From: Pseudomonadota bacterium | Lineage (GTDB): Archaea > Thermoplasmatota > SW-10-69-26 > JACQPN01 > JAJPHT01 | DNA: 64,000 nt | Assembly: GCA_021325135.1 (NCBI GenBank) | Contig: JAJPHT010000015.1 | Coordinates: forward strand, 1 to 64,000 | Direction: 5' to 3' | Notes under the pieces: model-generated | Told to the model about the DNA's origin: nothing | The model's input: the letters and a program-made list of their open reading frames with translations, nothing else | The model's database searches: none | Shown: piece after piece, positions 1-10,396 of the stretch | Layout of the letters: the number at the start of each line of letters is the position of its first letter | Numbering within the stretch: position 1 is the stretch's first letter | Made by a program: the position numbers and the translations under genes

Positions 1-1009
1 GTTCCACAACGTCAAGGTCAGCGCGTTCAAGAACAACACGGACCCCGACGGCGTCTCCTACGGCAGCCACGAGAACTACTGCGTGCCGCGCGCCATGGAG
101 TTCCCCGGCGCCTACGTGCGCTCGCTGGTCCCGCACCTCGTCACGCGCATCGCGTTCTGCGGCGCGGGCGACTTCATCGACCGCCGCTACGTGCTCAGCC
201 CCTGCGCGTACCTCACGAGCGAACTGATCTCGGGGGGCAACCTCAGCAACACGGGCATCCTGCACACGCGCGACGAGCCGCACGCGGACCCCACCAAGTG
301 GCGCCGCCTGCACGTCATCATCGGCGACGCGCTCATGAGCGAGTGGTCCATCTACCTGCGCGCGTTCACCACCTGCGGCGTGCTGGAGCTGATGGAGGGC
401 GGCCACCTCAACGACGCGCCCCAGCTCAAGGAGCCCCTGCGCGACATGTGGCACATGGTCGAGCAGCTTGCGCCCGAGCAGTGGCGCCTCGAGCTGACCA
501 ACGGCAAGTGGACGACGCCCATGGCGGTGCAGCGCTACTACCTCGCCAAGTTCGAGGAGCACGGCCTCGTCACGAACCAGGAGGAGAAGGAGGCCCTCTC
601 CACGTGGGAGTGGATCCTCGACAAGCTGGAGGCGGGCGACATCCAGCAATTGAAGCGCAAGGTGGAGTGGGTCATGCGGCTCATCGAGGTCGAGAAGATG
701 ATCGACCTCAAGGGGCGCGACGAGAACGTCGAGATCGCCGCCGCGAAGCAGTATTCCGAGCTTTCCGGCGCGTCGGGCCTCTATTACAAGGTCCTCAACG
801 CTGGCGCGGTCGACCGCCTCACCACCGACGACGAGATCAAGAAGGCCATGACGACGCCGCCCCACACGCGCGCCGAGGCCCGCGTGAAGCTCCTCGACGA
901 GTTCGAGATGGGCAGCATCGACTGGAGCGAGATGTCCATCCTCACCGAGGACGGCGGCTACGAGCGCGTCCACCTGCCCGACCCCTACTCGACCCAAACC
1001 CCCCTTTGA
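1..1009 (+). CDS. Pup ligase/depupylase (PafA/Dop) family protein, 5'-truncated by the window edge
   Basis: Frame open from nt 2: FKNNTDPDGVSYGSHENY...LVTRIAFCGAG...HTRDEPHADPTKWRRLHVIIGDALMSE...PPHTRA...IDW...LPDPY. These match the PafA/Dop motifs FKNNTDxxGxSYGxHENY, TRDEPHAD..YRRLHVIxGD, PP.TRA, VDW and DPF. PafA versus Dop cannot be decided without the N-terminus. Confidence 0.92.
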   Translation, partial: FHNVKVSAFKNNTDPDGVSYGSHENYCVPRAMEFPGAYVRSLVPHLVTRIAFCGAGDFIDRRYVLSPCAYLTSELISGGNLSNTGILHTRDEPHADPTKWRRLHVIIGDALMSEWSIYLRAFTTCGVLELMEGGHLNDAPQLKEPLRDMWHMVEQLAPEQWRLELTNGKWTTPMAVQRYYLAKFEEHGLVTNQEEKEALSTWEWILDKLEAGDIQQLKRKVEWVMRLIEVEKMIDLKGRDENVEIAAAKQYSELSGASGLYYKVLNAGAVDRLTTDDEIKKAMTTPPHTRAEARVKLLDEFEMGSIDWSEMSILTEDGGYERVHLPDPYSTQTPL

Positions 1010-10063: not shown

Positions 10064-10396
10064 TTACACGTCCGGCTCGTCGTCGGCCGCGGCCTTCTTC
10101 GAGGCCTTCTTGGCGGGGGCCGCCGCGCTCGCGGCGCCCTTCTGCTTCTCGGCCTCGCTGATGTCCCACGCCTTCAGCGCGTCGGCGAGCTGGTTGATGA
10201 CGGCGCGGTCGATGGGTAGGGTGCAGCCCCCCTTCTTGTAGCGGGGCTCGCCGTCGCTGCCGTAGAAGCCGCGGGCGAGGCGCAGGTAGGGCGTCGCGCG
10301 GTTGCCGTCCTTGACGAGGTTGATGGAGAGCTCCAGGAACTCGCCGCCGTTGTTGAACTCGACGCGTTCGTTGGAGAGCATCTCGAAGTCGGGCAT
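10064..10396 (-). CDS. Small soluble protein, possible PC4/PUR-like nucleic-acid-binding fold with a Lys/Ala tail
   Basis: Beta-rich YLRLARGFYGSDGEPRYKKGG followed by a helix; PAKKASKK tail. The fold is inferred. Confidence 0.6.
   Translation of the reverse strand: MPDFEMLSNERVEFNNGGEFLELSINLVKDGNRATPYLRLARGFYGSDGEPRYKKGGCTLPIDRAVINQLADALKAWDISEAEKQKGAASAAAPAKKASKKAAADDEPDV

Follow-up and report, generated by a model that had tools for sequence, protein, structure and literature searches.

The enzyme gene and its chromosomal setting

The window, a 64,000-nucleotide stretch that forms the start of contig C15 in the assembly of a Thermoplasmatota archaeon of class SW-10-69-26, opens in the middle of a gene. 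Frame 2 of the plus strand is open over 335 codons (nt 2-1009), and its translation contains all of the motifs from which an initial annotation, made from the letters alone, had recognized a homolog of the pupylation enzymes PafA and Dop in an archaeal chromosome. That identification is borne out by the motifs, by conservation throughout the class (see below) and by profile searches, in which the Pfam Pup_ligase model (PF03136) matches the window part over profile positions 124-440 with an E value of 2e-70 and 238 bits, against a cut-off of 25. The top PDB matches are Dop and PafA, with sequence scores slightly higher for Dop.

The remainder of the gene lies on a second contig. Positions 1-102 of the window overlap the end of contig C18 in an exact and unique 102-bp match, which fits the 66-107 bp end overlaps common to most contigs of this assembly. 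Joining the contigs through this overlap places the 5' part of the gene on the minus strand of C18 (L003 377 down to 103). The complete gene then begins with a GTG 275 bases ahead of the window and ends at nt 1009, a total of 427 codons of which the window holds residues 93-427. A chimeric assembly at the C15 end, the first objection that the initial annotation raised against itself, is ruled out by the unique overlap and by the genome of a same-genus relative, which can be aligned through the C18/C15 junction from -1785 to +1010 (82%) with no break. An orthologue from the same genus, 95% identical over the window part, stood in for the joined 427-aa protein in full-length searches and structural models. 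The enzyme model has the PafA/Dop fold, with TM scores of 0.86-0.87 against 4BJR, 7OXY and 4B0R.

The gene and its surroundings look native to the host, as had been claimed. Codon usage is host-like, with a GC3 of 0.974 (0.975-0.989 in host genes), and the window carries an adenylate kinase (PRK04040) and an archaeal cytidylate kinase, each above its cut-off, with archaeal core genes on both C15 and C18. Two minor features of the window may be recorded here. The intergenic stretch after the enzyme stop codon (1030-1130) looks self-complementary, and similar sequence occurs elsewhere on C15, at about 124600-124900. A 110-aa open reading frame on the minus strand (10064-10396) has a host-like look and no NCBIfam match.

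Active site and family membership

The N-terminal GxExE motif, singled out beforehand as a place where the homology might break down, is intact as GSEHEY on the C18 part of the protein, and the catalytic Asp sits in DVGH, which resembles the DVG of PafA; the DHAH of Dop is absent. Within the window, comparison with Dop shows an intact HEN motif (68-76, plus strand), its His115 corresponding to Dop H155, and the TRDEPH and RRLH..D catalytic motifs (266-328, plus strand) are likewise intact in the alignment. Indeed, the metal, nucleotide and catalytic residues (GhExE, the catalytic Asp, HxN, the TRD Arg, RxH..D and the C-terminal Trp) are invariant in 31 Thermoplasmatota sequences.

Two other positions have changed. 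In the alignment, Cys160 (203-205, plus strand) stands where the SQR motif of the family has its Arg (Dop R205), and Thr176 (251-253, plus strand) replaces the Arg that corresponds to R201 of Corynebacterium glutamicum PafA and R221 of Dop. Arg is found at position 160 in 0 of the 31 Thermoplasmatota sequences and Arg or Lys in all 135 of the others, while position 176 is Thr in 31 of 31 and Arg or Lys in 134 of 135. Dop R205 presumably counts among the arginines that hold the free C-terminus of the tag. The equivalent of Thr176, PafA R201, forms a salt bridge to the C-terminus of Pup (PMC8599861).

Assignment to one of the two known branches of the family fails on both sides. The window part scores 196 bits with the PafA model (TIGR03686) and 185 bits with the Dop model (TIGR03688), where the cut-offs are 551 and 492, and the full-length orthologue misses both as well (244 and 236 bits). 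The spacing from GxExE to NGxR is 41 residues, which leaves no place for the Dop loop; most PafA-type enzymes have 39-49 and Dop-type enzymes mostly 70-120. The position of Dop T217 is occupied by Asn in class SW-10-69-26 enzymes. All told, none of the marks of Dop (a score above 492 bits, the loop, DHAH and T217) is present, and of those of PafA the enzyme shares the absence of the loop but not the score, the placement in the PafA clade or the Arg equivalent to R201. [quoted passage not shown]

Distribution and inheritance

The enzyme gene is present in single copy in 21 of 21 genomes of the class. Its HMM matches in 19 of the 20 relatives, and the twentieth holds the 3' end of the gene at a contig edge. 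A second PafA/Dop paralog, which had been expected upstream of the window, does not occur in this genome. Outside the class the enzyme is sparse, with one occurrence among 380 sampled genomes of the phylum and 15 among 201 genomes of the class that includes a 'Thermoplasmata' relative.

In a midpoint-rooted tree of mostly unnamed sequences, with long branches and a shortened bootstrap run, the enzymes from Thermoplasmatota group together as a single clade (support 99). This clade is nested among three sequences of archaeal context, one labeled Nitrososphaerales and two located beside dph5 or dph6, and stands apart from the groups that contain actinobacterial PafA and a named bacterial Dop. Inside class SW-10-69-26 the tree matches the family groupings, as expected for vertical inheritance. 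Recent transfer of the gene from bacteria, another of the objections foreseen, is excluded by its class-wide single copy and by the separation of the clade from bacterial PafA and Dop.

An upstream ATPase and the archaeal proteasome

The initial annotation placed the rest of the system upstream of the window and considered that it could not be completed from there. The whole genome yields an ATPase on C18, in the predicted direction, and a candidate tag farther along C15. The ATPase is a 510-aa AAA+ protein of the Mpa/ARC type, identified by profile and fold matches (C18, L003 4967-6499, minus strand), and once the contigs are joined it lies 4.6 kb upstream of the enzyme on the same strand. 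Its best NCBIfam model is that of the pupylation ATPase (TIGR03689), matched over the full length with 360 bits, under the cut-off of 505. The protein has a coiled coil, two beta domains and one AAA module, and its top 30 fold matches are all mycobacterial Mpa. Cdc48 comes first in a plain PDB sequence search because it has two AAA domains; an assignment as PAN or Cdc48 is rejected, since a true PAN and two Cdc48-like proteins are encoded by other genes of the genome. Genes of the ThiF and ThiS families are also present. Sixteen of 20 class relatives have the ATPase at E<1e-90 (the misses include one genome that is 95% complete), often 1-6 kb upstream of the enzyme. Near the ARC gene, FEN1 and a protein that by the look of its sequence resembles L-isoaspartate methyltransferase recur in relatives (L048, L050, L055, L058). 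In the present genome the last ARC codons, stop included, are repeated about 150 bp downstream (C18, L003 4811-4951).

The C-terminal docking motif (GxYx/HbYX) is absent from the ATPase, with EVM, EVQ or EVA at the 15 complete C-termini; the GxYx motif is what Mpa needs for docking to the proteasome (PMC6466877). The 20S subunits of the host, two tandem beta and two separate alpha (C49 12529-13828, C11 31249-31986 and C12 18733-19563), are all archaeal-type and lie on contigs other than that of the enzyme. No linked bacterial-type prcBA was found, there is no proteasome gene among the conserved neighbors of the enzyme, and the regions around the four subunit genes contain no match to the candidate tag. 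The idea that the pathway feeds the native proteasome is therefore unsupported, given an ARC without a docking tail in a genome that has PAN, and we put the chance that tagged protein is delivered to the archaeal 20S at slightly below even. Of the two alpha subunits, the second has diverged further and might work with another regulator.

A candidate tag with an internal glutamine

When all open reading frames surrounding the enzyme gene in relatives were clustered, a single small family emerged directly downstream of it. The orthologue in this genome is a 60-aa candidate tag at C15 129867-130049 (L072 5868-6050, plus strand), outside the window and 129 kb downstream of the enzyme; enzyme, ATPase and tag are not an operon here. 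The forecast of a small modifier is matched by this candidate but not in its details: the candidate is not upstream, and its Gln is internal rather than part of a terminal G[EQ]. The family occurs once per genome in 20 of 21 genomes of the class and directly follows the enzyme in 12. A second tag-like match, on C35 (E 6), has a GC3 of 0.57 and no acidic core and is a chance hit. Directly upstream of the tag (C15 about 129600-129870) is a small open reading frame that resembles ribbon-helix-helix regulators, an arrangement also seen in at least two same-genus genomes.

The tag has a basic N-terminus, an acidic middle and the sequence KKGQ followed by 8-9 residues. In all 20 class genomes with a tag, GQ is followed by 8-9 further residues and the Gln is invariant; nucleotide changes over the KKGQ motif and tail are mostly synonymous. 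Among 120 homologs, the Pup-like position holds Gln in 115 and Glu in 5, and tail length ranges from 6 to 37 residues, the first six of which are conserved. The tag does not end in the terminal G[Q/E] of Pup and UBact tags. Pup itself (PF05639) has no match in the genome or to the tag in a Pfam search, and the tag has no meaningful match, whether Pup or UBact, in Pfam or NCBIfam.

Relatives outside the class give the internal residue its register. A sister clade has an arc-enzyme-tag operon, and the three of its tags that were read have Glu plus six residues, within a KARKGE motif followed by the tail. Outgroup tags end in KARDGE and ARSGQ with no tail, and the position of the Gln/Glu is fixed by the tail-less outgroup end, which matches the sister-clade motif almost letter for letter. 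The prediction that enzymes with both arginines go with tail-less tags was borne out in the two such relatives with a readable tag, which end in GE and GQ. That said, loss of the arginines and gain of the tail map to a single branch, and so amount to one coupled event and not a statistical correlation.

A modeled complex of the orthologous enzyme with the tag gave a score of 0.64, where the best of three controls gave 0.00. Among 80 solved complexes and 110 mismatched pairs, this mark was reached by 58 of the former and 2 of the latter. Contact agreement between runs was at least 75% and the partner pLDDT at least 58. The contacts involve tag residues 4-43, Gln51 and the tail not being confidently placed. 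The score may reflect likeness to known structures, since PafA-Pup and Dop-Pup complexes have already been solved. With that reservation, binding of the tag to the enzyme is supported by the model.

A possible mechanism and its alternatives

Enzyme, ATPase and tag have one common distribution, and the best explanation is a three-part Pup-like tagging module that has been vertically inherited in class SW-10-69-26. The system probably works like pupylation. The 60-aa tag would bind the Pup groove of the enzyme, as in the model, and present the invariant Gln51, which from the alignment appears to be the counterpart of the terminal Gln/Glu of Pup. The enzyme would turn the Gln51 side chain into a gamma-glutamyl phosphate, either by direct phosphorolysis or by deamidation followed by activation with ATP, and would couple it to a lysine on a target, with the tail staying on the tag. 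Loss of the two arginines would suit a residue that has no free alpha-carboxylate and would give the tail room. The ARC hexamer could then capture the tag and unfold or disassemble the target, much as Mpa does. To our knowledge, all characterized Pups attach through their terminal residue. Cyclization of the Gln onto a lysine in the tail is unlikely, since lysine is missing from most tails of the sister clade.

The demands on the enzyme are considerable. PafA has both ligase and depupylase activity, and that of Mycobacterium tuberculosis is unable to deamidate PupGln (PMC5358908); Dop, for its part, can be turned into a ligase (PMC7947786). It follows that the single archaeal enzyme must do both jobs, which no natural family member is known to combine, or that an unlinked deamidase exists. 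That one enzyme deamidates the internal Gln and ligates it to target lysines, for unfolding by ARC, is from the sequences a somewhat better than even proposition. A fuller version is more tentative and less likely than not: one archaeal GS-fold enzyme may deamidate, ligate and perhaps also remove the tag through the internal Gln. The attached tag would be branched, its C-terminal tail free, and the chemistry would be distinct from both terminal Pup attachment and ubiquitin/SAMP conjugation; the enzyme would belong to an archaeal branch of the family that is old and works for an ARC unfoldase independent of the proteasome.

The strongest competitor, itself unlikely, dispenses with conjugation. 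The enzyme would modify the small protein only, as a Gln/Glu switch or by addition of a small amine, and the tag would then regulate ARC, or act as its adaptor, without covalent linkage. A lone enzyme acting on Gln is what a deamidase would look like, both Gln and Glu are found at the tag site, arginine loss could alter the chemistry of the enzyme and ARC has no docking tail. Yet the Dop loop is missing and the DVG motif is PafA-like, a pure deamidase would have no purpose where the tag is of the Glu type, and tail-less relatives with the same operon resemble ordinary Pup-type tags.

Somewhat less probable again is that the tag is a precursor, its tail cut off by a protease and its Gln converted to Glu by an unlinked deamidase, which would leave the enzyme an ordinary PafA-type ligase of the terminal residue. 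Such a scheme preserves known chemistry, agrees with the lack of the Dop loop as in PafA, and would account for tails of 6 to 37 residues as propeptide-like variation. Six tail residues are nonetheless conserved, no such protease or deamidase was found among the conserved neighbors of the enzyme, and the arginines that hold a free C-terminus were lost in exactly the clade whose tags have tails.

An internal Gln is the usual donor in transglutaminase reactions, and a third possibility, which we regard as very improbable, makes the enzyme a Dop-like eraser and leaves another enzyme, such as a transglutaminase, to link the internal Gln to lysines. The slightly higher PDB sequence scores for Dop than for PafA also point this way; the missing Dop loop, the Glu-type sister-clade tags, which are not transglutaminase donors, and the conserved neighbors, among which no transglutaminase-type gene was found, point the other. 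Equally remote is an inactive or scaffold enzyme, or a gene acquired recently from bacteria or produced by misassembly: two family-invariant arginines are gone and the scores fall far under the PafA and Dop cut-offs, but the remaining catalytic residues are all invariant, the gene is single-copy class-wide in a tree that tracks the family groupings, GC3 is host-like and the junction is confirmed in a relative.

Comparison with known tagging systems

The actinobacterial Pup-proteasome system (Pup, PafA, Dop, Mpa/ARC and PrcAB) shares with the archaeal module a GS-fold enzyme whose metal, nucleotide and catalytic residues are identical, a small, charged tag bearing G[Q/E] and an Mpa-like ATPase, and its arc-enzyme-tag gene order recurs in archaeal relatives. 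There are also differences. The archaeal module has one enzyme, not two; its putative acceptor residue is internal and followed by a conserved tail, and two pocket arginines are lost. Its tag has no detectable similarity to Pup, its ATPase lacks the GxYx tail, there is no bacterial-type 20S, and the host keeps PAN, Cdc48 and ThiF/ThiS-family genes. The UBact system of Gram-negative bacteria is reported to have, likewise, a small Pup-like tag that the Pup model does not match, beside PafA/Dop-family genes and an ARC-like ATPase. Unlike the archaeal tag, UBact is said to end in G[E/Q] and to be linked to proteasome genes.

Two further bacterial cases are comparable in particular respects. In C. 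glutamicum, no 20S is linked to ARC, which still works on tagged proteins and disassembles, among others, tagged iron-storage complexes (PMC12288473); it offers a model for the tail-less archaeal ARC. That bacterium, however, uses PafA together with Dop and a terminal acceptor residue and lacks a proteasome, whereas the archaeon has its own 20S. Planctomycetes have single-copy PafA/Dop homologs that, as here, fall outside the PafA and Dop clades, and in Rhodopirellula no proteasome is linked; these homologs differ in being bacterial, in aligning partly with the Dop loop and in their linkage to a membrane protein, and a tailed tag is not reported for them (PMC7947786, PMC2588565).

The combination of one enzyme with an internal likely attachment point suggests a tagging chemistry that has so far not been described. 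No report of an archaeal pupylation-type system was found in the literature searched; the UBact paper reportedly makes brief mention of an ANME-1 locus. Family surveys of PafA/Dop cover bacteria only (PMC2588565, PMC7947786), and pupylation is described from bacteria only in the literature searched (PMC2588565, PMC7947786, PMC12288473). A class-wide archaeal module would be a second tagging route alongside SAMP-type modifiers, and enzymes outside both bacterial clades bear on the origin of Pup, PafA/Dop and ARC. It also raises the mechanistic question of whether a single member of this family can combine the roles of Dop and PafA, with an internal residue as substrate. Protein labeling might benefit from a ligase able to use Gln or Glu inside a chain.

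The neighborhoods of related genes vary. A locus labeled Nitrososphaerales (L110) has ARC and enzyme adjacent, with no same-strand tag reading frame after the enzyme. One outgroup genome, G401, has two ARC-enzyme modules (L115, L116), neither enzyme with a Dop loop; its tag ends in GQ and is tail-less, and a penultimate Tyr occurs at the C-terminus of the second ARC only. Five relatives (L049, L050, L059, L060, L062) have a helix-turn-helix-like gene directly upstream of the enzyme, and in one family the enzyme-tag pair has for neighbors what look, by sequence, like an HflX-like gene and a second AAA ATPase.
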